A stretch of 63,372 nucleotides of DNA, the filler included, from Pseudovirgaria hyperparasitica (lineage: Eukaryota), in NCBI GenBank assembly GCA_010093815.1. It is 3 parts of 2 records of this genome, joined end to end, with 100 filler letters (N's around TTAATTAATTAA, not from the genome) between each part and the next. Parts side by side here need not be neighbours in the genome. Positions count along the whole stretch, not along the records: positions 35,314 to 63,372 come from ML996609.1; 2 more parts are not named here. One strand, written 5' to 3'. Positions 5,659-63,372 of this stretch are shown here, one piece after another. Under the pieces are notes generated by a model. It searched no databases. It saw only the letters and a program-made list of their open reading frames with translations, and was not told where the DNA came from. The stretch's first letter is position 1. Each line of letters opens with the position of its first letter. Both the position numbers and the translations under genes were made by a program.

Positions 5659-7335
5659 TCAATCTACCCAATTAATTATTATTAAGATTAGACGCCTCAA
5701 CATTCTTAAGAGCGGTTCCCTGTATAGTCTATTAGTATACCGCTCTTTATTCTCGTACGGAAGAATGATACTTACAAACAAATTAGGATCTAGATGTGGA
5801 TGTGCTAGGACTTCTAGCCGAGGGGCTATTCTAGTATAGACATGGTCCTGAATCCTACGGCGTAGCTGAACATAGATATCCATAAATGGACTTCTCTGTT
5901 CTTCAGCCGTACGAAGCGGTGTACCTCTATTAAAGCTAAGATCTTCGAGCTGGTTCGTACACCATAGTAGTGTATTAGGTGGTAGATATGCATCCATATC
6001 CTAAGCTCCTGCCTGGCCTCGGATAGTAGCAAGAGCCTCTTGATTAATAGGTACTGCTCCACGTTTAATACCTTTAGCTGGCATAAAGTAATTTCGTACG
6101 GGTGGTCCAGAGACAGCAGATGGTCGATCTCTCTGTCTTCGGATAGGATGCTGATTCCATGTCTGTACGAAGCTTGAAACTTCCGTACGGAGAATTGGAA
6201 TATAGATTGCCTGAATAGTAATCCGATCTGTATAACTCTGTGTATTAAAGATACCTCTCTGCTTAAGCTCTGAGAAGAAGTTCTAAATATCTATTAGCTA
6301 AGTATAATATACTACCGTACGATACATACCCTCCATCGGAATAAGAGTGCCTTAGAAAGCTGTGCCCACCAAGCCTCAATCCTTTGATTAGATGTACTTG
6401 TCCTAAACATCCAGCATTGATTTAGTGGAATCTCTGGGTCATCAACCTGGCGGAGATTCCACTGAATATTTGCCATACAAGTTGTCTCACCACCTCTATC
6501 ACTTCGTACGAAGCGTGGCTGGATACCTCTAATTCTTAAAGTTTCTAGAAACTGAAAGAGACAACTAACTGCTGTAGCAGATGAGATACTAACATAGGCC
6601 CAGATAATATATCTTGAGTATGCATCCATATAGGCATAGATCTCAATACCGTATAAGCTAAGCTTGTGGTACCCATCCATACTCTAGATATAATCAGGAC
6701 CTTTCATAATATGCTGGCCTCTATGGCGCTGAAAATCATGATAGCGGCGTCGTACGCCCTCTGGATTTAAGATCTTCATAGCCTGAAATAGCCGATCTCT
6801 AGATAGATTCTTAGAATAAGTCTTTATATATAGATAGATAGAAGGGTATAGATACCGTACAGTCTGGACTCCAGCTCCTAGGAAATGTGCATGGAGTAGG
6901 CCTCGACTAAACCCATTAATTACTCCTAACTCTAAGCCTTCCCGTACGAGCTGCATTGCCTTCTTACTTTCAGCCTGTTATGCATCAATACCTCGTACCT
7001 TTCGTACGATACCCATATCTATACGACGGCGATATAGAGAACTCCGTGAGATCTTAAACCCTTCTTCTTGAAGGATCCGAATAATCTCAGTATCTGGAAG
7101 AGCTAGTTCAAGGGTAAGAGTACGGATTCTATCCTATAGGCTCTCTCGTACGGAAGAGGGAAGTAAAGAAGAGTCCTTTTAAATCTTCCATGTAGAGAAA
7201 CAGCGCTTGAGCGTACGATGGGATACTGTAATACCATGTACACGCTTAATCCAGGCTAGGAGATCATTCTAGGTATAACCAGAGGTATATTTTGAGATAA
7301 TCTCCATCTGGAGATGGGCTATCTGTTACGCCATT
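5659..7335 (-). pseudogene. integrase-core (IS3EU-type) DDE transposase, probably with N-terminal Clr5-like HTH, broken by RIP stops
   Basis: Motifs DGYHKL..YGIEIYAYMDAYSR, PRFVRSDRGGE and STSNQRIEAWW in ORF 6312-6680; upstream fragment RDRLFQAMKILNPEGVRRR. Confidence 0.8.
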
Positions 7336-7632: not shown

Positions 7633-8387
7633 NNNNNNNNNNNNNNNNNNNNNNNNNNNNNNNNNNNNNNNNNNNNNNNNNNNNNNNNNNNNNNNNNNNN
7701 NNNNNNNNNNNNNNNNNNNNNNNNNNNNNNNNNNNNNNNNNNNNNNNNNNNNNNNNNNNNNNNNNNNNNNNNNNNNNNNNNNNNNNNNNNNNNNNNNNNN
7801 NNNNNNNNNNNNNNNNNNNNNNNNNNNNNNNNNNNNNNNNNNNNNNNNNNNNNNNNNNNNNNNNNNNNNNNNNNNNNNNNNNNNNNNNNNNNNNNNNNNN
7901 NNNNNNNNNNNNNNNNNNNNNNNNNNNNNNNNNNNNNNNNNNNNNNNNNNNNNNNNNNNNNNNNNNNNNNNNNNNNNNNNNNNNNNNNNNNNNNNNNNNN
8001 NNNNNNNNNNNNNNNNNNNNNNNNNNNNNNNNNNNNNNNNNNNNNNNNNNNNNNNNNNNNNNNNNNNNNNNNNNNNNNNNNNNNNNNNNNNNNNNNNNNN
8101 NNNNNNNNNNNNNNNNNNNNNNNNNNNNNNNNNNNNNNNNNNNNNNNNNNNNNNNNNNNNNNNNNNNNNNNNNNNNNNNNNNNNNNNNNNNNNNNNNNNN
8201 NNNNNNNNNNNNNNNNNNNNNNNNNNNNNNNNNNNNNNNNNNNNNNNNNNNNNNNNNNNNNNNNNNNNNNNNNNNNNNNNNNNNNNNNNNNNNNNNNNNN
8301 NNNNNNNNNNNNNNNNNNNNNNNNNNNNNNNNNNNNNNNNNNNNNNNNNNNNNNNNNNNNNNNNNNNNNNNNNNNNNNNNNNNNNNN
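7633..8387. other. assembly gap (N)
   Basis: Run of N. Confidence 0.99.
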
Positions 8388-14925: not shown

Positions 14926-15025
14926 NNNNNNNNNNNNNNNNNNNNNNNNNNNNNNNNNNNNNNNNNNNNTTAATTAATTAANNNNNNNNNNNNNNNNNNN
15001 NNNNNNNNNNNNNNNNNNNNNNNNN
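14926..15025. other. artificial contig-join linker
   Basis: 100-nt N block with central TTAATTAATTAA (14970-14981). Confidence 0.95.
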
Positions 15026-35213: not shown

Positions 35214-35313
35214 NNNNNNNNNNNNNNNNNNNNNNNNNNNNNNNNNNNNNNNNNNNNTTAATTAATTAANNNNNNNNNNNNNNNNNNNNNNNNNNNNNNN
35301 NNNNNNNNNNNNN
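35214..35313. other. artificial contig-join linker
   Basis: 100-nt N block with TTAATTAATTAA (35258-35269). Confidence 0.95.
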
Positions 35314-35469: not shown

Positions 35470-35703
35470 CTCAGGCGCGGGTGAAAGGAGTCGCAGTGTA
35501 GCAGTGTTCAACAGCCAGTTCTCGACTATGCCGAACCCTTGCGCGCCCTCCTCTCCTACGTTCACCTTCTACCCACACCATACCAACGTGAGATACCTAG
35601 TCGACCAGTAAGTGTTCATGCGCTCAACCGAAAACATAAACAAGCCGCATATGCCGGCTACAGAGCGCCTAAGAATATAAGTCGTGGGAGCCATGCAACC
35701 ATA
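35470..35703 (+). pseudogene. truncated paralogue of the 5' part of the CXC-SET gene
   Basis: Aligns with 47190-47423 (CGACCAGTAAGTG...CGAAAACATAAACAAGCCGCATATGCCGG...GTCGTGGGAGCCATGCAACCATA); stops at PCNH. Confidence 0.85.
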
Positions 35704-36579: not shown

Positions 36580-37081
36580 CTGACTTCGGCACATACAATC
36601 CGAATCCATGCAAGCTCAATCTGCTTAAATATTCTAATAGAGAATACAAGCTCAATCTACACCTCAAAAATGATTGCCACGACGGTACAATCTCAATCCG
36701 ATTGGTCAGATTGCTTGTGTTAGATTGAATAAAGTGGGGTATATTCATAGATATAGCCTAGAGCCTTATCTTAGCTATATTTAGGTATTTTTAAAGCCTT
36801 AGGCAGGAATATTAGGGCCTTAGGGCACGTTAAGGCCTTAGGCAGGCATATTAAGGCCTTAGGCAGGAACATTAGGGCCTTAGGCAGGAGTATTAGGGCC
36901 TTAGGCAGGAATATCATAGCCTTAGGTATATCTATATATATATCCACTTTATTCAATTTAACACAAGCAATCTCAATCCCTTGGCGCAGATTCCAAGCTC
37001 AATCCGTACTTTGAGGGTGACTAATCATACAATCCTAATCTAGGCCCTCGGATTGTATCCGATTGTATATGCCGAAGTCTG
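36580..37081. mobile_element. hAT MITE with 8-bp TSD
   Basis: TIR C(T/A)GACTTCGGCA...TGCCGAAGTCTG; TSD TTCGGATG (36572-36579, 37082-37089); internal ~21-bp minisatellite TTAGGGCCTTAGGCAGGAATA. Confidence 0.9.
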
Positions 37082-41069: not shown

Positions 41070-41914
41070 NNNNNNNNNNNNNNNNNNNNNNNNNNNNNNN
41101 NNNNNNNNNNNNNNNNNNNNNNNNNNNNNNNNNNNNNNNNNNNNNNNNNNNNNNNNNNNNNNNNNNNNNNNNNNNNNNNNNNNNNNNNNNNNNNNNNNNN
41201 NNNNNNNNNNNNNNNNNNNNNNNNNNNNNNNNNNNNNNNNNNNNNNNNNNNNNNNNNNNNNNNNNNNNNNNNNNNNNNNNNNNNNNNNNNNNNNNNNNNN
41301 NNNNNNNNNNNNNNNNNNNNNNNNNNNNNNNNNNNNNNNNNNNNNNNNNNNNNNNNNNNNNNNNNNNNNNNNNNNNNNNNNNNNNNNNNNNNNNNNNNNN
41401 NNNNNNNNNNNNNNNNNNNNNNNNNNNNNNNNNNNNNNNNNNNNNNNNNNNNNNNNNNNNNNNNNNNNNNNNNNNNNNNNNNNNNNNNNNNNNNNNNNNN
41501 NNNNNNNNNNNNNNNNNNNNNNNNNNNNNNNNNNNNNNNNNNNNNNNNNNNNNNNNNNNNNNNNNNNNNNNNNNNNNNNNNNNNNNNNNNNNNNNNNNNN
41601 NNNNNNNNNNNNNNNNNNNNNNNNNNNNNNNNNNNNNNNNNNNNNNNNNNNNNNNNNNNNNNNNNNNNNNNNNNNNNNNNNNNNNNNNNNNNNNNNNNNN
41701 NNNNNNNNNNNNNNNNNNNNNNNNNNNNNNNNNNNNNNNNNNNNNNNNNNNNNNNNNNNNNNNNNNNNNNNNNNNNNNNNNNNNNNNNNNNNNNNNNNNN
41801 NNNNNNNNNNNNNNNNNNNNNNNNNNNNNNNNNNNNNNNNNNNNNNNNNNNNNNNNNNNNNNNNNNNNNNNNNNNNNNNNNNNNNNNNNNNNNNNNNNNN
41901 NNNNNNNNNNNNNN
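41070..41914. other. assembly gap (N)
   Basis: Run of N. Confidence 0.99.
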
Positions 41915-42578: not shown

Positions 42579-42648
42579 CATACGGCTAAACCGTGGCCCC
42601 GACCGCAAAAATCCGTTTTTGCGGTCAGGGCCACGGTTTAGCCGTATG
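42579..42648. repeat. near-perfect 33-bp-arm hairpin; possible TIR-only Tc1/mariner relic with TA flanks
   Basis: CATACGGCTAAACCGTGGCCCCGACCGCAAAAA-TCCG-TTTTTGCGGTCAGGGCCACGGTTTAGCCGTATG, one mismatch. Confidence 0.85.
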
Positions 42649-44042: not shown

Positions 44043-44699
44043 CCCGGGCTAGCATGTCTGTACGATCGCAGGATCATATCGCACTACACCATATATAGCT
44101 TAGATAATCCTTTTCGACCCACATGTTAGTTGGAGGGAGCATGACCGCGCCTCAGAAGCAGAACATGTATGAATACTACAGCGACAAGTTTCTACTGCCT
44201 TCGTGCTATCTGTATACATAGCAATCGGGCCCAGGAATTTGGGAAGGAGGGTAAGGTTCCGGGACCCTCCTCGAGCGGGAGGACTTGCTTTTGATCCCGT
44301 ATATGACCAAATCAGATCAATAGCCTGTCCGTGCCGCGTTGTCGCACACCAGCGGGCAATAATATGCTGCGTGCGCCCTGTGAGGAAGTCTATCAGGGGT
44401 CAAGACCAATGTACCGGCGTTACAGATCGAACCATTCTGGAAATCTGAATAGGAGGTCGACATTGGAGTACAAGCGCAAGCAATCACAGTGTGATTGCGC
44501 AGGGGTGGGAGTCGGAACGAGACCTGGGGTCCCATTCTAAGCTCTCATGTTAGGTGTTCCATATCGTGTGTTTGATATCTTATGTAATAGTGAAGGATAC
44601 TCACGCATGGATTGTACCAAAAATATTCGTTACCTTTAGACCTGTCTAAGCATCCCTCATCTACTCGTCAAAATCACTAGCAAGACTTCGCAACACGAT

Positions 44700-46963
44700 A
44701 TGAGCTCCCGTGGCTCAATCGATGATGGCTGTGGTGGCGAGGATGCTTCTACTCCACTCCTCCCTCGATTGCTCCCGGCTTTGGGGGGTCATGGAAGTCG
44801 AGGTCCCAGCATTCGACTCTCGTCTGCACCGCCCAAGAGGATAGGAAACTCTATGGCGTGCGGCCCCTGTAAAGCCAGGAAGTTGCGGGTATGTTTCCAT
44901 CGAGCTTTGACGACGGACGCCTCTAATATGTGAGGCGGGTGCTAGTGCGATGGAATTCGGCCAGTGTGTACAAGATGCCAGAAGAAGAACACCGGTTGTC
45001 AGTATGAGTTGCGAGCCGGTGTTTCTCGTCAAGTCGCCTTGAAGAACTTTAAAGATGATCTGAAGCGTGAGAACGCCGACTTGAGAGAGCTTGTATTACT
45101 CCTGAAGACGAAGAGTGAAGATGAAGCAAAAGCAATACTCAATATGATCAGATCCCACGACGATCCTGTCAGCGTTATCGAGAAGCTTCGACAACATAAA
45201 CTGCCTCTCGCTTGGTCCGACACGCCGAGCCAGGACTCTGATAAGGCTGACGAGAAAGTCATCAAGAGTGCGACCCAGGTCCCTGCCCAGCCGTGGACAA
45301 GTGTGGCGACCGACGAAGTGGTCTCGGAGCTGATCACTGCCTGGTTCGCTTGGGAAGACACGACACTGTTTTCGTATATCACACTAGATCTTTTCGTAGC
45401 AGACATGAAAGCAAGCGATCCAGAGCGTGCGACATTTTGCTCTCCGTTCCTCGTCAACGCCATCTGTGCTGCCAAAGCCATCAGTTGCATCGCACGAGCT
45501 CATAGAATGAGAAGTGTCCACAAGGCCTTCAAGTCCATGGACAAGCCTGCCGCAGACGCAACGTCTGAAAGCACATGGGAGCTAAGCGAACGATTCCTCG
45601 CCGCTGCGAAGGAGCACTTGGAGCTTCAGTGCGGACGGGCTTCGCTTCCTACCATCCACGGACTGTATTGCCTTTTTCAGCACGCATCTATCTCAGGAGT
45701 AGATCGGGCAGGCTCGTTCTATCGACTTGCTGCGATCGACATGTTAAGCCGTCTCAACCTCACAAAGGTATACAGAAGCTTAAGAGACGACGTACCATCA
45801 CATTTCAGGCGAAAGCAGGCTATATCACGAACCCTGTGGGCAGTCTGTAATGTCGAAAGGTATGTCAAAGCTACTATGCCGTACCCGATCCATCACAATA
45901 AATATGTTGTTACGGTTTCTGGTATTGAAGACATGTTAACATCATTCCGAAATAGTCTTGCTGCATCGCTGTACCTGAAGCCCACCCTATTTCCGGCACC
46001 ACCAATTCCTCCCTACTTTCGAGAGCCTCCTCTTACATCTTCAAAAACGGAGGTCGAGGAATTTGACTTCCTGGGCTCCCCATTTTCTCCCAAGAGTTCA
46101 CAACCGCCCGTGGTACGAGGCGCACAATATGCACTATGCGAGGTCTCAATCATCATGAATGAGGTCGTATGCTACAACCACACCACCCGCGAGTGCCCAA
46201 GTGGTGATGCTGTAGATATCGACATCCGTAAGGATCTCTACCGCCGGCTCACAGATCTTGAAAGGTCCTGGCTAAGCTGGCTCAGACACGACGCTGAAGT
46301 CACCCCGCAAACTTTCGTCTTGGGGTAAGCGAGCACCTGCATTACTACAACAGCCTATTAACATTCCCTAGCTTCTTTGTGAACATCGTCGCCTACAACA
46401 TCCTCCGTCCGTTATACAACGTCCACCCTGATACAGGCTTCGAACCCTCACTGCCTCCAGGCTCGATGAGAGGCCCGCTAGGGTACGGGTCCACAGCACA
46501 GTCGTTCATCCTCAAACATGCCGCCATCGACGTCAAACTAATGGAGACGCTCGAGAAGCGCTGGCCATACAACATCCACCCCTTCACATCTTTTTTCCTC
46601 GCCGCACCGTACAACTGCGCCGCGACTCTGATCTCCCTCCTTCACATCCCCGTTGCACAGAATCTTTTCACCCGAGCCGTCTGCAATCTCCGCCTGCTCA
46701 AATCAGGTCTAACTTGTGTCAAGTTAATCCTCGGCGGCCTGCTGGTCGTAGCACAGTCCGTCGGCCAGCAAATCCCATCCGAAGCACAGGGCACCTTCGA
46801 CGGCGTGGAGGAAGCTTGCAGGCTGGAGAGCAAAGACATTGCTGTGTCGTTCCGCGCTCCTCAGGACGAAGCGTTGGTCAAGTTGTTGGCTATCAGCGAG
46901 AGTGAGAATCTTGACATGGTTGGCGAGGTAGAAAACATGGGGATGCATGCTATCGCTGTATAA
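44700..46963 (+). CDS. Zn(II)2Cys6 transcription factor with fungal TF middle domain (NirA-like type)
   Basis: ACGPCKARKLR|CDGIRPVCTRCQKKNTGCQY across intron 44889-44945; VPAQPWTSV, FCSPFLVNAICA; further introns 45860-45955 and 46325-46371. Confidence 0.9.
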
Positions 46964-47312
46964 GAGCGTGAGCCTGAAGGGGAGGGATGGTGCGAAATGA
47001 TGTGATACACCCGGCTTTATAGTCCTGGAATCTGGGAGAGCTGGAAGATTTGCTTTGCTTAACACTCACACAGATAAAATTTCGGACTGCGTGTTGGCCT
47101 AACGAAATGAGATATGCCTATTAAATTATGAAATTCATGCTTGAGAATCCTGATGGAGATATGCGCCGTGCAGGCTGTGACTCTGGTCGTTCTCAGGGGC
47201 TGCAGTACAGCACGTGACGAACAGCCAGTTCTCGACTTTGCCAGACGCTTGCGCGCTCTCCTCCACCTACTTTCATGACCTTCTCCCTCCTACCACACCA
47301 TACCGACGTAAG

Positions 47313-48346
47313 ATGCCTGGTCGACCAGTAAGTGCTCCTGTGTTCAATCGAAAACATAAACAAGCCGCATATGCCGGTTATAGAGCGCCTAAGAAATATA
47401 AGTCGTGGGAGCCATGCAACCATAGCGGCGCCTGCACCAGCTGCGTGTGCGCTATAAACAAGACGACATGCGAAGCCTCTTGTCGCTGCGCTGGGAACTG
47501 TCCTCGCCAGAGGGGGGGATGCAAGTGCGAGGGCGAATGCGTGTGGGAGGCCTGCTCGTGCTCGTCCGACTCATCGCAATGCACAACAGCATGTGCATGC
47601 GACGGAAGATGTGCGATCTTCCACCCAATGCCGTACATACTCTTTGTCGGGCTATCTAAACACGGGTTCGGATGCTTCGCTCTCCAGCCGGTTCCTGCTG
47701 GTACGATTCTTGCCGAATACGAGGGCTACCTTCGCCCGATCAGCGACGAGCCAGGGACGGTCACCCTGCTAGAAATGAGTACATGTATAGTCTACACCTT
47801 TGGAGGCTCGATTAATGAGACTGATCTGATCTGGTAGCACATTGCATTCAGGGCGTTTCAGGGACTCCTGCGTTTCACATGAATCACAGCACGAAGCCTA
47901 ATGCCTCTTTCTTGCAATGTAGAGCTAATTCCCGCCAATGGATACCAGTTATACAAACGAAGAAGCGCATGTCGCTGGGGGATGAAGTGCGACTTACCTA
48001 TTCGTGAGCTGCCTATCTTCTTCTTTACTCTTAGTGCTTACTAGGCCCTAGATGTGGGAATCTTGTTTTCGAACCGCAGCCAGAGTTTGCGACAAGGCCG
48101 CCGACTGGAGTGTACTGTCAGCGCAATCAGACCGAGCTACGCGGCGGCGATATCATTCCAGTCAAGCTGCCGGCGTTGGGTGGCCTCTGGTATGGGCAGG
48201 TGTCTGGGTTCAGTGTGTTAAGCACGTCCGAACGCACCGCATCGGCGTCGGATTTTGTTGAAGTGCGATGGCTCTACGCGAAGGACGATCTCCCGGAGAC
48301 TCTAATCGGGCGTCCCGCAACCACGTGTGGCACAATATTCGGGTAA
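47313..48346 (+). CDS. compact E(z)/KMT6-like CXC-SET lysine methyltransferase with C-terminal BAH-like segment
   Basis: Exons 47313-47784, 47838-48003 and 48052-48346 splice in frame (310 aa); CXC with 17 Cys plus His in EZH2-type spacing; SET motifs HGFGCFA, EYEG, HMNHS.KPN, GDEVRLTY; then LRGGDII.V...WYGQV...VEVRWLY. Start codon uncertain. Confidence 0.75.
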
Positions 48347-49432
48347 AGTGACAGTACGCCAGAAGCGGAGTAGACAGGGCTCTAACCCACTCAAGAGGCA
48401 GCCGACCGCGAAGAGAGCAAGGCAGGCCAGCACCAAGAAGAGCGTATCTGAGCCTCTGGAAACATCCGAAGCAGCTTATGCGTGCGCTGACTCGGATACC
48501 GTCGCAGTAGCACGTCTAAAGCGAAGTAGACCGGATGCAGACTCACTCGAGAAGGAGCTGACGGCGAAGAGAGCAAGGAGGACGCCGAGGCCGCGAGATT
48601 AGAGAGCCGAGAGCTTAACGGAGATTTGCATGAATTTGGCTGTCATGGACTGACTAATCAATAACGGAACGGGTCGTGCCATTTTGCGCCACCCCGCAAT
48701 CGCCAGCCTTAACTTTTTTAAATATTAATGTCAATTAAGAGAAATAGTTTTCATCTTGAACAGTGGACTCTCGAGCTGCTCAATAGCGTTAGGGTTTCAG
48801 GCCCTACCGCGAGTGTCGAAACTTGTAATTAATGAAATGGTTACATCTAAAAGCGTCGACCGGTGCTTAGGATAGCGGTGGGGCTATATCGAACCCGGCG
48901 TCGATTCCCATGACAGTTCTCGTGATCTACGATAGTCTTTGAAGTTAGTAAATACAAGAAGCGTGAATCTATTAGTCTAACGCATCTGGATTGGTAGGAT
49001 AAGGTGACTCCTGGGATACCAGCGGATTGTAGACTCTTAGACGAGCGTACATTCCGTGGCTGCGAGCCGCATTCGTTTGGTTTCATGTCTGCCTATGATG
49101 CGCAAACTCCGGCTTATTAGAGGATGGAGTAGGATAAATGACCCTACCACGGACGGAGACGATTGAGTGACTTCGCGTAAACCATGACATATGACGTCTC
49201 AGGATCGAATATTTTAATCGAACTGTGAAGTTGTGTGTGACTATAATAATAATAGTATTCCACGACCTAAATTCAAGAGCTAGCTATGACGACCTGCGCC
49301 TAGTATTAAAGATAGGCTAATTTTAAACCTAAAGATCTTCATCTATATCTCTATTACAACTAGAGAAGTCTTTCCATAGAAGAAAGCCACATTTACTCTT
49401 CACTAACACATTTAACACAGACTGTAGCTCAA

Positions 49433-51608
49433 ATGGGAAATTTGGACCTTAATTCTACGGAATCCCTCGAGGGTTTACAAAGCGATGAACAGAGGCGAGT
49501 CCTTGATACTGTGACCCAAGTCCGCAAATGCGGCCTTGATAGTATCCTTGCGTTACCTCAGCTGGTTGTCTGTGGCGACCAGTCTGCCGGAAAAAGTTCG
49601 GTTCTTGAAGCTCTCACCGAGATACCTGTCCCACGTAATGATGAGTTATGTACACGATTTGCAACGGAAATAATCATGCGTCGCTCCGCACAGGAGTCTC
49701 TTACCGTCAAAGTAATCCCTGACGCCGCACAACAATTACCAGGTCTCATAGACAATACTATGCAAGTCATGGGGATTACTACCACACAAGTATCCTCGCC
49801 TGCATTCGCCCGGGATGTCCTGAGTATCGAGATTGAAGGTCCCTCCAGGCCCCAACTTACAATGGTGGATCTTCCATGACTCATTCAAAACGAGAAAAAG
49901 GGAGTTACCAACGCGGATATCGAGCTTGTCAAAGAAATCACCGATCATTACATATCGCAGACACGAACGATCTGTTTAGCGGTTGTATCCGCTACGAATG
50001 ACTACGCAAATCAAGGAATTCTGACAAAGGTCAGGAAAGTTGATCCAGAAGGGGAGCGGACCCTAGACATTATCACCAAACCCGACAGTCTCTCAAGTGG
50101 CTCGGGTGGTGAGATGGCTTACATTAGATTGGCACGAAACGAAGACATTTTCTTCAAGCTTGGATTGCACGTGATCAAGAACAGGAGTTTTGAGGAGGGA
50201 GATTGTAGTTTCGTGGAGCGAAACGCGTCTGAACCATCCATTTTCCGGAGCTCGAATTCCAAGAGCTTGGAAAAAGAGACAGTGGGTGTCAACGCACTGA
50301 GGGACCGTTTGAGTCAGCTTCTATTCAAACACGTCAAGCAAGAGCTTCCGAGGCTTTACAATGATCTACAAGTGGCTCTAAAAGAATCAAAGTATAGATT
50401 AGTTTTGCTTGGGCAGCAGAGAGCAACGCCTGCACAATGCAGAGCATACCTGATGCGACTTAGCCTTGACTTCCATCAAGTCTGCTTAGCCACAAACAAA
50501 GGACATTATGAGGGCATATATTTTGATGGCCCAATCAGCGATGAGTTCACTTCCAAATCGGAGCCCTGAGTACGTAGGCTACGGGCTCTGATTCAGAAAT
50601 CGAACATAGTTCTCGAATTGGATGGATCAGAAAGGACATACGTACGACATGGACATTTCCAACGATGACATCGAGTCAGACTATGGACAACTTCCCCCAG
50701 CTTCTGACTCTGGAGATGTTGTCCCACTCTCTAGGGCGCAGGCGCTAGAATGGGTGAAAAGGCTTGTTGAAAGGAATGGGGGTCGAGAACTGCAAGGTAA
50801 TTTCAACCCCCTGGTCATCGGAGAGCTTTTCTGGGATCAGTCAAGAAAATGGAGTAATATGGCCCTTACACACACGGAGGACATCTCGGAAATCTGCCGA
50901 ACATTTCTATCGGACTTGCTTCAGCATATGTGCCCAGTGGATGTACGCAGTCGCCTCTGGGCATCGCATTTTGAGGAATCCCTGAAACAAATGATGGATA
51001 ACTCAAGGAAGGAACTCGACCTGCTCATCGAAGATCTCAAAGGCTTTCCAATGAATTACAATCATTACTATACGGACACGATCTATAAGCGGAGACTGGA
51101 ACGAGATCGTAAACTTCTGGCTGCAAGCATTGACAAGGCATCAGAACACAAAAGATTGCCTGAATGCCAATCGCACCATACATCGACAAAAGTAGATATC
51201 GCCAATGTCTTCGAGAATTTTCTCCGGGCTAAAAGCATGGACATGGATAGTCATGCATGCGAAGAAGCGATCGATGGAGTTATCGCCATCTACAAGGTCT
51301 GTAAAGCTCTGTAAAGCTCTGTATTGCCATTGCGCGTGTATACTCACATGTTATTCCACTCTCGGGTATTAAAAAAGCAATTCGTCGCAAACTTAACCGT
51401 ATAGGTTATAGAACGTCATATCGTTCGTGGGGTGAAGAATATTTTCTCGCCTATGACGATCAGCGGCCTCAACGCAGGGGAACTTCAGGAGCTGGCATCT
51501 GAACCAACATCGGTCAAACGACAGAGGGAATTTTTTGTTGACCGTATGGATAACTTAACGGAAGGGAACGCTATTCTACGGCGAGTCATGCGAGGGTCAT
51601 CTGGATGA
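49433..51608 (+). pseudogene. dynamin-family (Mx-like) GTPase, disrupted
   Basis: LPQLVVCGDQSAGKSSVLE, CTRF, DLP*L, TKPD, GRELQGNFNP, GED-like end; in-frame TGA at 49877 and 50567 plus a frameshift. Confidence 0.85.
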
Positions 51609-51851
51609 TTTTGTCAGTTTATTCAGGAGTAAGCGGGCGACGCACATTCTGACACGCTGGCATGCATGGTCAGCCTTCTATAAATATAACAGCTTGTGAC
51701 TCTGCTCGAATCTCGCCGCAGGAGCAAAAATCCGTTCTCAGTTGATTCCATCAGAGACTCTCTAGATCAGACTCCACATTTGCCGTATTCATCGGGAAGT
51801 CCCATTCGAAGCTATCTGGTCAGAATCGACAGTTCCTTACTAGCTTCCAAG

Positions 51852-52762
51852 ATGGCTCATCGCTCAGACGTGTTCACGTCGAACCCTACCACATTTCTTG
51901 TCGGCAAAGAAGAGGTCCCCATGGTCGTACATCATGGTGTCCTTGCTCCGTTGTCCGACTATTTTAAAAGACTTCTTGGCGATGATTCGGCATTCAAGGA
52001 GGCTGAGGAGAAAACGGTCCTTCTGCCACAAATCAAACCGGATGACTTTAGTCGCTTCTGCACATTCGCGTATACTGGCGATTATGCAGCACCACCATAT
52101 GTCGTCGACGATGACTGGACCGAAGAGCTACAAACCACGCGTGTGGATATGGTTGCAGAAGCAATGAATGAGGTACAGGATGAAGCACACCGGGGGGGAC
52201 CGAATTCACAGCGGAATTCCTGGTATATACCTCTGCGTCAACGGTGAGCAAGGGGAAGAGAACGACGAAGTACGCGGATGAGCCGACCGCTGCTCTCTAT
52301 CAACCAGTGGTTGGAGAGCAGGACTTTCATGTCAGAAGACCAGATTTTGAGAGACGAGCATATTGTGCCACTACCCCGTACGAGGATTATCGCCAATCAT
52401 TTCGTGTTGCTCCTCATAGTGCCGGAGCAGAAAAAGCAGAGCACGTCTTCCTTGCCCACGCGCGGCTCTACGCATTCGCCAAAGAGAAGATGGTGGACAG
52501 TCTTATCAGTCTCAGTCTTCAAAAGCTGCATAAGACTCTCGCAGTCTTTACCCTGGACCAAAGACGTTACCAAGATATTCTAGCGTTAACTCGATTTGCG
52601 TTTAGTGAGGATTATCCTGAGCTGCAGGATATGGTGGCGTTGTATCACGGTGCACATTTCACCAAGATTGGACGCTTTGAATCGTTCTACTCTATCTTGT
52701 GTGAAGAGGGACATCTTGGTGCAAACTTGTTGCGATTATTCTATGAGAATAAAAGACATTGA
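51852..52762 (+). CDS. fungal BTB/POZ-domain protein (frame change near 52245; may be a pseudogene)
   Basis: TFLVGKEE..MVVH...LSDYF...FKEAEEKTVLLP...FSRFCTFAYTGDY; VFLAHARLYAFA...LSLQKLHKTL. Confidence 0.75.
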
Positions 52763-56624: not shown

Positions 56625-57085
56625 ACGTGCCCAACGCTGCGTGGCATTTCGCTGACAAACTGCATTATACCTTGCAGTGATGACGGCGCACAGCAAGCTC
56701 TTCACTCTCCTGCCTAGTAAGATATGGGTCTGCGAGCCGCTGCGTGAACCGTTGAGCAAGGATAACCTGCGCTTTGTGCGGAAAGTTACTTGCGTATTCG
56801 TTTCCATTGGTCTACATAAGTCCGTCATGGTTAAGTAGCATCATGTACGTGTCGTCGTATTGTTAGTATAGCCAAGGCGACTGACATGGTTTGGCTCAGA
56901 TACAGATCCCGAGATAGCTTAGCAGAATCTATGCCTCAGCATGGCTTAGACGATTGGAGAGCGGCGATGACTTGGTGGATCTCATGGCTCAGTATCATGG
57001 GTCCAACGGCTCAGTATCTAGACGGCTCCACTAACCCTGTAAATCCTGGAGCCTAGTATATCTTGCTACGGTGTAGATACAATTT
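56625..57085 (-). pseudogene. second decayed copy of the homeobox locus with its upstream module
   Basis: 56700-56790 matches 62825-62920; 56915-57085 is the reverse complement of ~62250-62420. Confidence 0.8.
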
Positions 57086-61184: not shown

Positions 61185-62520
61185 ATTGAATTGAACGCTT
61201 GTCGCTGGATTGCCGCTAATTTGACCCGTCCAATCGCTGCCCTAGGTCAACTGATGCGTCCGATACTGGGTTCTATGGATCTTCGGCTACTGACATATCT
61301 GGGTAGTAGGAGCCACAGACCTCGTTCGAAGTCCTAGAAGGCAACCCGGAATAATTGAGCTGCTGGGGTATGTAGATAGCATAGGGGTCATCTGAGAGGA
61401 CTTCACACTCTGTTTCTGCTCCTAGGGAAGTCGCTGACAATGGTTCGAGAGGCGTTTGCGACTGCATCTTGCTGTCAAGGCGGACGCTAGAAAGTCAGTA
61501 CCCTCCAGATTTCTGCCGGGCGTAAGTACAACTAAAAGTGCTTTAAATACTAAGTTTCGAAAATACTGATGTCCGGAAGAGGCAGTCTGAAAAGGCGCAG
61601 GCCCCACATGCCGACGCTGTGTGCCATTTCGCTGATGTATCGTACTAGGTATAAGTTGATTGATCCCTGCAGTGATGAGAGCTACAGGGCGCGCAGGAAG
61701 CGTCTCTGTAAGGCTCAGTAAGTAGGCAACCGGTGGACCGACTTCTAGGCGAGTCTTCATTATTTTACGGCACTGTGACAAGATCTACTAATTAAGCTGG
61801 TCAGCACTGGTCCAGGATTCTAGACTGCCAAGACCTTGGCGAGTAAACAATGACGCCAGTATGCACTATAACAGAAGACTCAGTAAAGATGCCTGGGCCC
61901 TTCTCAGACATTTTAAGTCCCGATTGTGATTATTTGTGCCTGGAATGCGGACCATTCTGCACCATTCACACCTAGGGAAACGATTGCGCTACACGAGCAT
62001 CATGTCTCAAGCAAGCTCGCAAGATGGTAACAAGTATCTGATCGGCCACTAGGGTACCCTTTGCTTCTCTGACACGTTCTACTAGATTCTCCTATGAAAC
62101 TCGCGTGTTTTGGTGGTACCTGTGCATGTTTCCCGTGTCAACCCCAAACCTTAAGACCGGCACCAGGGCTATCAGGTCTGCGTAGAGCTCTGTATTGTTC
62201 AGTCGCGGGAAGAACAGTCCTCGTGTATCTTGAACGAGATGGGTGCGGAAATGTGCATCTACACCGCAAGAGGATATACTAGGCTTCAGGATCTACAGGG
62301 TTAGTGGAGCCGTCTAGATACTGAGCTGTTAAACCCACGATACTGAGCCATGAGATCCACCAGGTCATCGCCGCTCTCCAATCGGCTAGGCCATGCTGAG
62401 CCATAAATTCCGCTAAGCTATAATACTCTTTTCCTATAGTGCCGCTTTGTTCAGCCATGGCTCTGCCAAAGCCTCTTGACTCATTGCAGATAAGTAAGCC
62501 TATACTGGGACAGTGTATAT

Positions 62521-63372
62521 GTGCTTTTAGTCTCCCAGGAGCCTCCCCTCCGGTCTACTAGGCCAATGGAGATGAATACGCAACTATGCTCGCAACAGAG
62601 CGCTTCATGCTGGAGTCACGACCACTGGTATGGATATCATATATCTCTAGCGTATGGCTCATGCGAGACTGTCCATTCGACCGCGCCGCAGTCACTCGAA
62701 AGAATAGAGTACTCCACTGCCAACCCTTCAAAGCCTCAATATTCTTCATATCTAATAAGGCAGACGCCTGTGGGAGACACGACAAAGGAGAATCAGTCTT
62801 GTAAGATTGCGAAAGATTGCAAGAACTTTCCGCACAAAGCGCAGGCTATCCTTGCTCAACAATTCACGCAGCGGCTCGCAGACCCATATCTTACTAGGCA
62901 GGAGAGTCAAGAGCTTGCTGCGCTCACCGATCTAAGTGTCCGTCAAGTACAAGTATATTTCGCTAATGCTCGTGCGAGGAAGCTCTGTCGAGGACAAGCA
63001 AAAGCATCTGCAGGTACCAAGAGTGTCAAAAAAGCGTAGACTGAAGACGTCGCAGCGCATTCAGCCTGATCTTACCGCATCGCTACTCCGGACGCCGTCT
63101 TCTCCCGATCACATCTTCCAGTGCACTTTCTGTGTGCAGGACTTCAAGCGCAGGTATGACTGGGAGAGACATGAGCAAACTATACATCTCCGCCTGCAGC
63201 AGTGGATCTGCATGCCCGAAAAGGCTGTAACATCTCCATCAATCGCGAAGAAGACTCAGTGTGTATTTGGTGGAATGAACAGCCCCACGTCTTTGCATCT
63301 ACAGTCACACGACCTGTGTCAATGTATCAAGAAGGAAGAATCAAGACGTACGTTCACCAGGAAAGACAAATT
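62521..63372 (+). pseudogene. TALE/KN homeobox plus C2H2 transcription factor (stop and frame change at ~63037; runs off the window)
   Basis: DPYLTRQESQELAALTDLSVRQVQVYFANARARK; in another frame FQCTFCVQDFKRRYDWERHEQTIH..QWICMP...RTFTRKD. Confidence 0.8.

Follow-up and report, generated by a model that had tools for sequence, protein, structure and literature searches.

An unusual short CXC-SET gene in Pseudovirgaria hyperparasitica

The locus and its surroundings

The window, that is, the whole stretch of DNA analysed (63,372 nucleotides, filler included), consists of parts of the Pseudovirgaria hyperparasitica genome separated, at 14926-15025 and 35214-35313, by spacers that each comprise 44 N, ttaattaattaa and another 44 N. 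The CXC-SET gene sits on the last contig of the window (35314-63372, 28,059 nt), in which an unreadable run of N occupies 41070-41914. Its neighbours are a Zn2Cys6-type gene upstream and dynamin-like and BTB genes downstream, with a homeodomain gene beyond. The initial annotation had placed the gene in accessory or mobile DNA, a setting that is unsupported: among the ORFs tested with Pfam on the contig (35314-63372), no transposon-type or Starship family was detected, and DUF3435 was not found on it (Pfam, E ≤ 0.001, submitted ORFs of at least 100 aa). The Pfam scan took in the ORFs other than the eight that overlap the gene, the ORF at 49561-49884 and those touching N runs. The RIP indices of the contig are ordinary, as is its GC content (0.47-0.54).

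A degenerate copy of the 5′ end of the gene, comprising the upstream region and about 37 codons, was located by tblastn and alignment at 35505-35702 (plus strand) on the same contig. In this copy, the ATG has become ATA and one nucleotide is deleted. This 5′ fragment is all that tblastn yielded, and no second full copy of the gene is present within the window. The contig also carries inverted repeats at 56688-57081 and 62254-62923. Because of the dead 5′ fragment and the inverted repeats, we read the contig as a duplication-prone stretch.

Gene structure and transcript contigs

The first ATG in frame is at 47313, and the upstream frame is closed at 47181. From this ATG, three pieces of the plus strand (47313-47784, 47838-48003 and 48052-48346) join in frame to give 933 nt, or 310 codons and a stop. 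Exon 1 (47313-47784), delimited by sequence and contig cover, encodes the initiator methionine, a basic lead of 34 residues, the CXC region and the first ~50 residues of the SET domain. Exon 2 (47838-48003) provides the second half of SET with the NHS..PN and GDEVRLTY motifs and was assigned from these motifs, the Pfam SET match and the AlphaFold pLDDT. Exon 3, as first read, runs from 48052 to 48346 with TAA at 48344-48346, whereas its end in the public model is 48342.

Intron 1 (47785-47837, plus strand) is 53 nt long and reads GTATAG...CTGAT...TAG; intron 2 (48004-48051, plus strand) is 48 nt long and reads GTGAGC...TAG. Both are GT..AG introns, and both joints, 47784 to 47838 and 48003 to 48052, occur in contigs of two out of two runs (X1 and X2). 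The same two junctions are used in the public protein P0005 (‘hypothetical protein EJ05DRAFT_490812’ of P. hyperparasitica; UniRef name, SET domain-containing protein). The proposal that two GT-AG introns join three ORF pieces into a protein of 310 aa is thus borne out by contigs and public model alike, and exon 3 is indeed spliced on, since the joint at 48003 to 48052 is found in contigs of both runs and P0005 agrees.

Runs X1 and X2 come from one sample of one study, and their kind (RNA or DNA) is not on record; we read them as RNA-like because their contigs carry GT..AG skips. Were X1 and X2 DNA, the joined sequences would represent DNA copies without introns and not mRNA. One further GT..AG joint, 44887 to 44945, is present in the upstream gene, in X2 alone. 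Contig cover is uninterrupted from 47158 or 47229 to 47730, and therefore the CXC coding part and the start of SET lie on the same molecules. The bins at 45835-46635 and 48772-49572 are free of contig cover and were not counted as evidence.

Although it shares both junctions, the P0005 model begins at Met106 of the 310-aa reading, so the CXC is missing from it. The public gene model starts too late and should begin at 47313; the reading from 47313 corrects a model that omits the CXC.

CXC region

The CXC coding part (47415-47612, plus strand; residues 35-100) contains 17 cysteines and, after the first of them, His37. When exon 1 was compared with PDB sequences, the first 14 Cys/His positions matched the EZH2 CXC column for column. 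All 15 top chains belonged to EZH2 or EZH1 (best E 0.003), and the next family, EHMT2, followed at E 0.66. A profile (A2) built from exon 1 and 30 short relatives, which we chose from 96 matches, reached the CXC-SET of EZH2/EZH1 at E 9e-30 (107 bits), as against ~1e-15 (about 60 bits) for the top chains outside E(z) (Set2, EHMT1, ASH1L and NSD). The identification of an EZH2-type CXC with 17 cysteines therefore stands on the alignment of residues 35-100 to EZH2 and on the profile. The short CXC models of Pfam gave no match on exon 1 at E ≤ 10, and no other Pfam family was found in exon 1. Judged from their number, the 17 cysteines and the histidine would be enough for two three-zinc clusters.

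SET domain

All of the SET motifs named initially (GxG, EYxG, NHS..PN and E...Y) are in place, as GFG, EYEG, NHS..PN and E..LTY. Pfam SET scores 23.9 bits on P0005 against a cut-off of 22.4, and the single exon pieces each fall below it. AlphaFold gives a pLDDT of 84-95 across the SET core (P0005 residues 1-110). In the alignment with relatives, GxG, the tyrosine of EY.G, NHS..PN and the final tyrosine are kept. Compared with E(z) proteins, the SET-I segment from EY.G to the following strand is short by ~8 residues, and the positions that usually read (I/V)DA and GN..RF are IQG and SGTPAF.

Structure comparison with VIA gave Z 14.0 to the SET domain of EZH2 (4mi5), a tie with hSET8; the top place in Foldseek went to MLL1, with EZH2 only at rank 25. 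On the predicted model, the fold searches confirm a SET fold and do not single out E(z). P0005, in which SET stands without the CXC, found no significant solved relative among PDB sequences: S. pombe Set7 (E 0.36) and MLL3 (E 0.38) come out best, and EZH2 is absent among the best 20 rows. Since the SET core by itself has no significant solved relative, it is the CXC and the first third of SET that carry the link to E(z).

The exon 3 module

Exon 3 carries the strings GGDIIPV, LWYGQV and VEVRWLY. These strings (GD.I.V, LWYGQV and VRWLY) look like the front half of a BAH domain, and a BAH-like domain had been proposed from them. The corresponding region (48107-48307, plus strand) is a beta-rich ‘BAH-like’ module of four predicted strands with an AlphaFold pLDDT of 45-64, whose fold is unproven. 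The strands make up ~57 residues and are followed by a disordered basic tail. A full BAH domain is about 120 residues long. With at most ~70-80 residues ahead of the basic tail, a complete BAH does not fit, and the exon 3 residues correspond at most to the front half of one.

Sequence searches did not recover the domain: BAH (PF01426) had no Pfam match on exon 3 (E ≤ 10) or on P0005 (E ≤ 0.01), and no BAH chain was returned by exon 3 from PDB sequences. The AlphaFold model of exon 3 alone has a mean pLDDT of 50.5. With this low-confidence model, the best Foldseek match was the barrel of an A-ATPase B subunit (E 0.06), rows for Tudor and PWWP had low probability, and VIA gave unrelated small barrels with a best Z of 4.1; no BAH occurred among the best 50 rows of either search. 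AlphaFold modelling of the protein thus bears out SET with confidence (pLDDT 84-95); for exon 3 the models, being of low confidence, neither show a BAH fold nor count against one.

ESM Atlas comparisons, for which the model of P0005 has a pLDDT of 0.52, returned BAH-linked rows that were all ‘under the bar’: 6 of 10 rows for residues 122-206 (TM by query 0.57-0.62) and 3 of 10 for residues 108-272 (TM 0.37-0.39). The Atlas feature search gave no usable match for residues 108-272; for residues 122-206 its best named match reached 0.75, which is a lead only. Of the proposed BAH-like domain, then, the strings in exon 3 stand, the Pfam and PDB matches do not, and the Atlas neighbours lie below the bar.

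The 3′ end and a near-identical copy

A GKVTV piece at ~48340 had been taken as the end of the BAH domain, displaced into another frame. It shares its frame with the tail and not with exon 3, and because the stretch SGKVTV-RQKRSR..TAKRARQ has a counterpart further along, SDTVAVARLKRSR..TAKRARR (15/30 identical, E 4e-6), it is a unit of a repeated basic tail; its reading as the end of a BAH domain is ruled out. The tail units are underlain by a direct DNA repeat (48353-48422 and 48509-48578).

In the public model, the tail is reached through a third intron (48343-48397, plus strand; 55 nt, GTAAAG..CTAAC..AG, from comparison of P0005 with the window) and is encoded by exon 4 (48398-48602, plus strand; P0005), which contains two KRSR..AKRAR units and ends with TAG at 48600-48602. 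Removal of 48343-48397 reaches the tail frame, and the CTAAC branch site is a good one; splicing of this intron is not among the joints listed for the X1 and X2 contigs.

Contigs of both runs also show a joint from 48323 to 48364, leaving out 40 nt (48324-48363, plus strand) that have no counterpart in a near-identical copy of higher depth. A frame check showed that loss of these 40 nt brings exon 3 into frame with the tail. The ends of the missing stretch, CG..GA, are non-canonical and the variant contigs differ from the window by 1-2% of bases; we therefore attribute the joint to a second copy or allele and not to splicing. The variant contigs have a depth of 200-640 and the exact-match contig, which spans 48275-48589 unspliced, has a depth of 8/22, although depth is a poor measure here. 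No second annotated protein for the near-identical copy is present in the protein library. Four of the seven listed exon 1 differences between the two copies are synonymous, which may be a hint of selection.

The window's copy is probably frame-damaged at the junction between exon 3 and the tail, to judge from the reading frames. As the 40 extra nucleotides break the frame, the product would probably be the 310-residue protein without the basic tail, or else the third intron would be needed. Damage to this copy had been suspected already because of the displaced GKVTV piece; that basis has fallen away, and the 40-nt frame break makes the damage probable on other grounds.

The missing PRC2 interface and the relatives

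Only 34 residues separate the start of the protein from the first cysteine, and the protein therefore has no PRC2-docking N-terminus. Among Pfam families, none of the EED-binding region, SANT, MCSS or SET activation loop families was found in exon 1. Together with the closure of the upstream frame at 47181, this confirms that the long N-terminus for binding EED and SUZ12 is lacking.

A phmmer search of exon 1 against 1.84 billion representatives gave 97 matches at E ≤ 0.001, P0005 itself included, and the relatives align over residues 11-146 of the exon 1 protein. Of the Pfam families specific to E(z) (PF18264, PF21509 and PF21358), one or more occur in 44 of the 96 non-self matches, and Ezh2_MCSS occurs in 15 of the 96; BAH was found by Pfam in 0 of the 96. 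The closest relatives (P0006, at E 1e-13, P0007, P0009, P0010, P0011 and P0012) have 176-255 residues. Short relatives, P0006, P0007, P0009 and P0011 among them, begin 30-60 residues ahead of the CXC, and in some of them the lead has the P.F...Y pattern of the window protein. Members of this short group align contiguously to residues 30-140 of the query, and their CXC abuts SET. Many relatives end at the site of the window's intron 1 and are therefore possibly single-exon calls; the full-length relatives P0006, P0009 and P0036 stop right after SET.

The search with profile A2 returned 12 proteins, of which the named ones are from Phytophthora cactorum, Mycena filopes and Heterobasidion irregulare, that is, one oomycete and two basidiomycetes. 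A search for orthologues of P0005 at 149-476 aa and one for homologues of exon 3 at 171-2000 aa each returned P0005 alone, and no relative was confirmed at metagenome loci with alignment A4 or with P0006.

A quick tree was calculated from 81 rows (the window protein and 80 of the 96 exon 1 matches) and 121 columns; 15 matches that had no aligned CXC or SET start were left out, and one further match is not accounted for. The tree has poor resolution, stars being found on 7 of its 78 inner branches. Left free, it places the window protein on a branch of length 1.34, together with two further long ones, within the cluster that includes the long E(z) proteins (SH-aLRT 81, unstarred). Constraining the window protein to 33 rows of the short type changed the log-likelihood by +27.9 relative to the free tree (p-AU 0.85), the group having been named post hoc. 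The window protein would be one of a scattered group of short CXC-SET proteins whose sequences start shortly ahead of the CXC.

Interpretation

The CXC-SET build of the gene is real and unusual. We favour, with a probability of roughly 0.6, a real, transcribed, intron-containing gene whose product is a stand-alone methyltransferase of the E(z) lineage, independent of PRC2. Read from 47313, the predicted order of domains would be a basic lead, the CXC, a divergent SET, a beta-rich module of ~75 residues and a repeated basic tail that resembles an NLS. The SET domain, although divergent, retains the SAM-binding and catalytic residues (GxG, the tyrosine of EY.G, NH and the C-terminal tyrosine). 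From this arrangement we infer a nuclear SAM-dependent lysine methyltransferase, derived from E(z) and acting without PRC2, for which H3K27 would be the putative substrate as a default guess only.

The window's gene could instead be a decaying duplicate, one among several copies of recent origin in this duplication-prone stretch, heading towards a pseudogene while the function is carried by the other copy, or else a lineage-specific relic. We consider this unlikely. Exon 3 and the tail are put out of frame by the 40-nt difference, and the GKVTV unit is off the exon 3 frame although its homologous second unit is in frame. The exact-match contig is unspliced and far shallower than the variants (with the reservation on depth given above), a dead 5′ fragment lies on the same contig, the second half of SET is divergent, and searches with P0005 or exon 3 gave no orthologues. 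Set against this, all three exons are open with both introns spliced, the SAM and catalytic motifs are kept, and the majority of the listed differences between the copies are synonymous; the third intron of the public model, with its good branch site, would moreover restore the frame.

A non-catalytic role is improbable in our estimation. The CXC-SET would then be a decoy or competitor, one that modulates chromatin or PRC2 by binding to nucleosomes, H3 tails or PRC2 partners. The shortened SET-I, several altered positions of the substrate channel and a SET core without a significant solved relative could be accommodated in this way, but a dead enzyme would not be expected to keep GxG, the tyrosine of EY.G, NH and the C-terminal tyrosine, and the protein does not have the region that binds EED and SUZ12 with which to compete for partners. 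EZH2's SET domain taken by itself is described as autoinhibited in PMC8106495, which fits a non-catalytic protein; it follows that partner-free activity of the window protein is not a given.

We hold it to be more improbable again that the protein is a self-contained H3K27 writer-reader, in which SET writes the mark, the BAH-like module reads it and spreading proceeds independently of PRC2, as the initial annotation had it. The E(z) type of the CXC, the likeness of the exon 3 strings to the front half of BAH, and the BAH-linked Atlas rows for residues 122-206 and 108-272 are consistent with such a protein. So is the existence of the fungal BAH-PHD readers EPR-1/BP1, which read H3K27me according to PMC8501951 and 10.1101/868117. 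The likeness of exon 3 to EPR-1/BP1 is at the level of motifs, however, and the window protein differs from them in having no PHD, no Pfam BAH and about half a domain's length. Every Atlas row is under the bar and derives from a model of low pLDDT; the exon 3 model is of low confidence, with unrelated small barrels as its best matches; the 70-80 residues available do not extend to the back half of a BAH; GKVTV is a tail repeat; and none of the 96 relatives carries a BAH. The idea of a writer-reader is not supported well enough to be counted on. Least probable of all, in our judgement, is the evolutionary form of this idea, in which an E(z)-derived enzyme shed its PRC2 interface and captured half a BAH barrel, so that writer and reader came to lie in one polypeptide.

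Returning to the stand-alone methyltransferase, E(z) proteins are thought to require EED and SUZ12 for activity. A one-polypeptide writer-reader, if true, could spread H3K27-type methylation without either of them. A natural, transcribed protein that has kept of E(z) just the CXC-SET core, and that has relatives of similarly short build, makes partner-free methylation versus non-catalytic competition testable; whichever the answer, lone methylation or competition, it bears on the evolution, loss and replacement of PRC2-type silencing in fungi.

Comparison with known systems

The window protein shares with E(z)/EZH2/KMT6 (SET-7) the spacing of the Cys/His residues and the position of the CXC directly ahead of SET. 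It differs from E(z)/KMT6 in having no EED/SUZ12-docking modules, SANT or MCSS, and in its extra C-terminal module and basic tail. In comparison with fungal KMT6, it is short (~310-380 residues) and its SET core is divergent; fungal KMT6 proteins are longer than those of animals, as stated in PMC8788455. The short CXC-SET proteins (P0006, P0007, P0009, P0011 and P0036 among others) have the NKTTC motif in common with the window protein, at an identity of 30-44%, but the window protein does not have their F.ISKG insert, and its C-terminal module is found in none of these short relatives. A limited literature search found no description of a CXC-SET-BAH fusion or of a short fungal E(z)-like protein. 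E(z) proteins of clades I and II have SET only, or CXC followed by SET, as described by Sharaf et al. 2022 (PMC9018016); the CXC-SET build of the window protein is alike, the comparison being one of descriptions.

The likeness to vSET of chlorella virus is one of fold. vSET has no CXC and no sequence relation to the window protein beyond the SET fold. It is a minimal SET enzyme that is active without PRC2, and its structure (PDB 3kma) ranks 36th in the Foldseek search with the window's SET model.

Copies and relatives of the CXC-SET gene

Contigs of two public runs (X1 and X2; one sample, one study) were compared with the window. Across the segment carrying the CXC-SET gene and the Zn2Cys6 gene upstream of it (44500-52500), many of these contigs diverge from the window by 1-2%, and they occur beside contigs that match it exactly. 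Past 51890, the divergence rises to about 8%; a 3,009-nt record, aligned with 51890-52500 after an 89-nt skip, shows 48 differing letters and 5 gaps. The divergent contigs suggest that the whole segment has a second copy or an allelic version. No second protein for this putative copy or allele was found in the protein library searched.

A degenerate copy of the 5' end of the CXC-SET gene, comprising the upstream region and the first ~37 codons, is located at 35505-35702, on the same 28-kb contig as the gene itself. It has ATA in place of the ATG and a 1-nt deletion, and its homology to the gene ends at the ...PCNH codons. At the CXC-SET gene, the main ATG is overlapped out of frame by an upstream ORF of 18 codons (MTFSLLPHHTDVRCLVDQ, 47275-47331); in a transcript beginning upstream of this ORF, translation could be dampened.

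In terms of identity to the window (44%), P0008 (604 aa) ranks first among the exon-1 relatives. Its JmjC and C5HC2 domains are followed by a CXC-SET of the short type. P0008 may be a genuine fusion of a demethylase with a methyltransferase, or else the gene caller merged two adjacent genes.

Window layout and repeats

Spacers (N44 + ttaattaattaa + N44) occupy 14926-15025 and 35214-35313. The window is thus a chain of separate contigs, and distances spanning the spacers are therefore meaningless.

On the contig of the CXC-SET gene, tandem copies of a ~21-nt unit (ttaggcaggaatattagggcc-like) are located at 36770-36900, and a 33-nt palindrome that is nearly perfect and has a 4-nt loop (42579-42648) lies soon after an N run. 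Inverted repeats, 100-168 nt long and with 90-95% complementarity, lie at 56688-57081 and 62254-62923, their arms separated by 5-6 kb; one arm adjoins the homeodomain ORF (62494-63039).

No DUF3435 was found among the ORFs of 100 aa or more compared with Pfam (E ≤ 0.001). On the first contig, an ORF on the minus strand (6315-6683) carries an integrase core domain (rva_4, E 1e-11; rve) and looks like a retroelement remnant. An N run (7633-8387) lies beside it.
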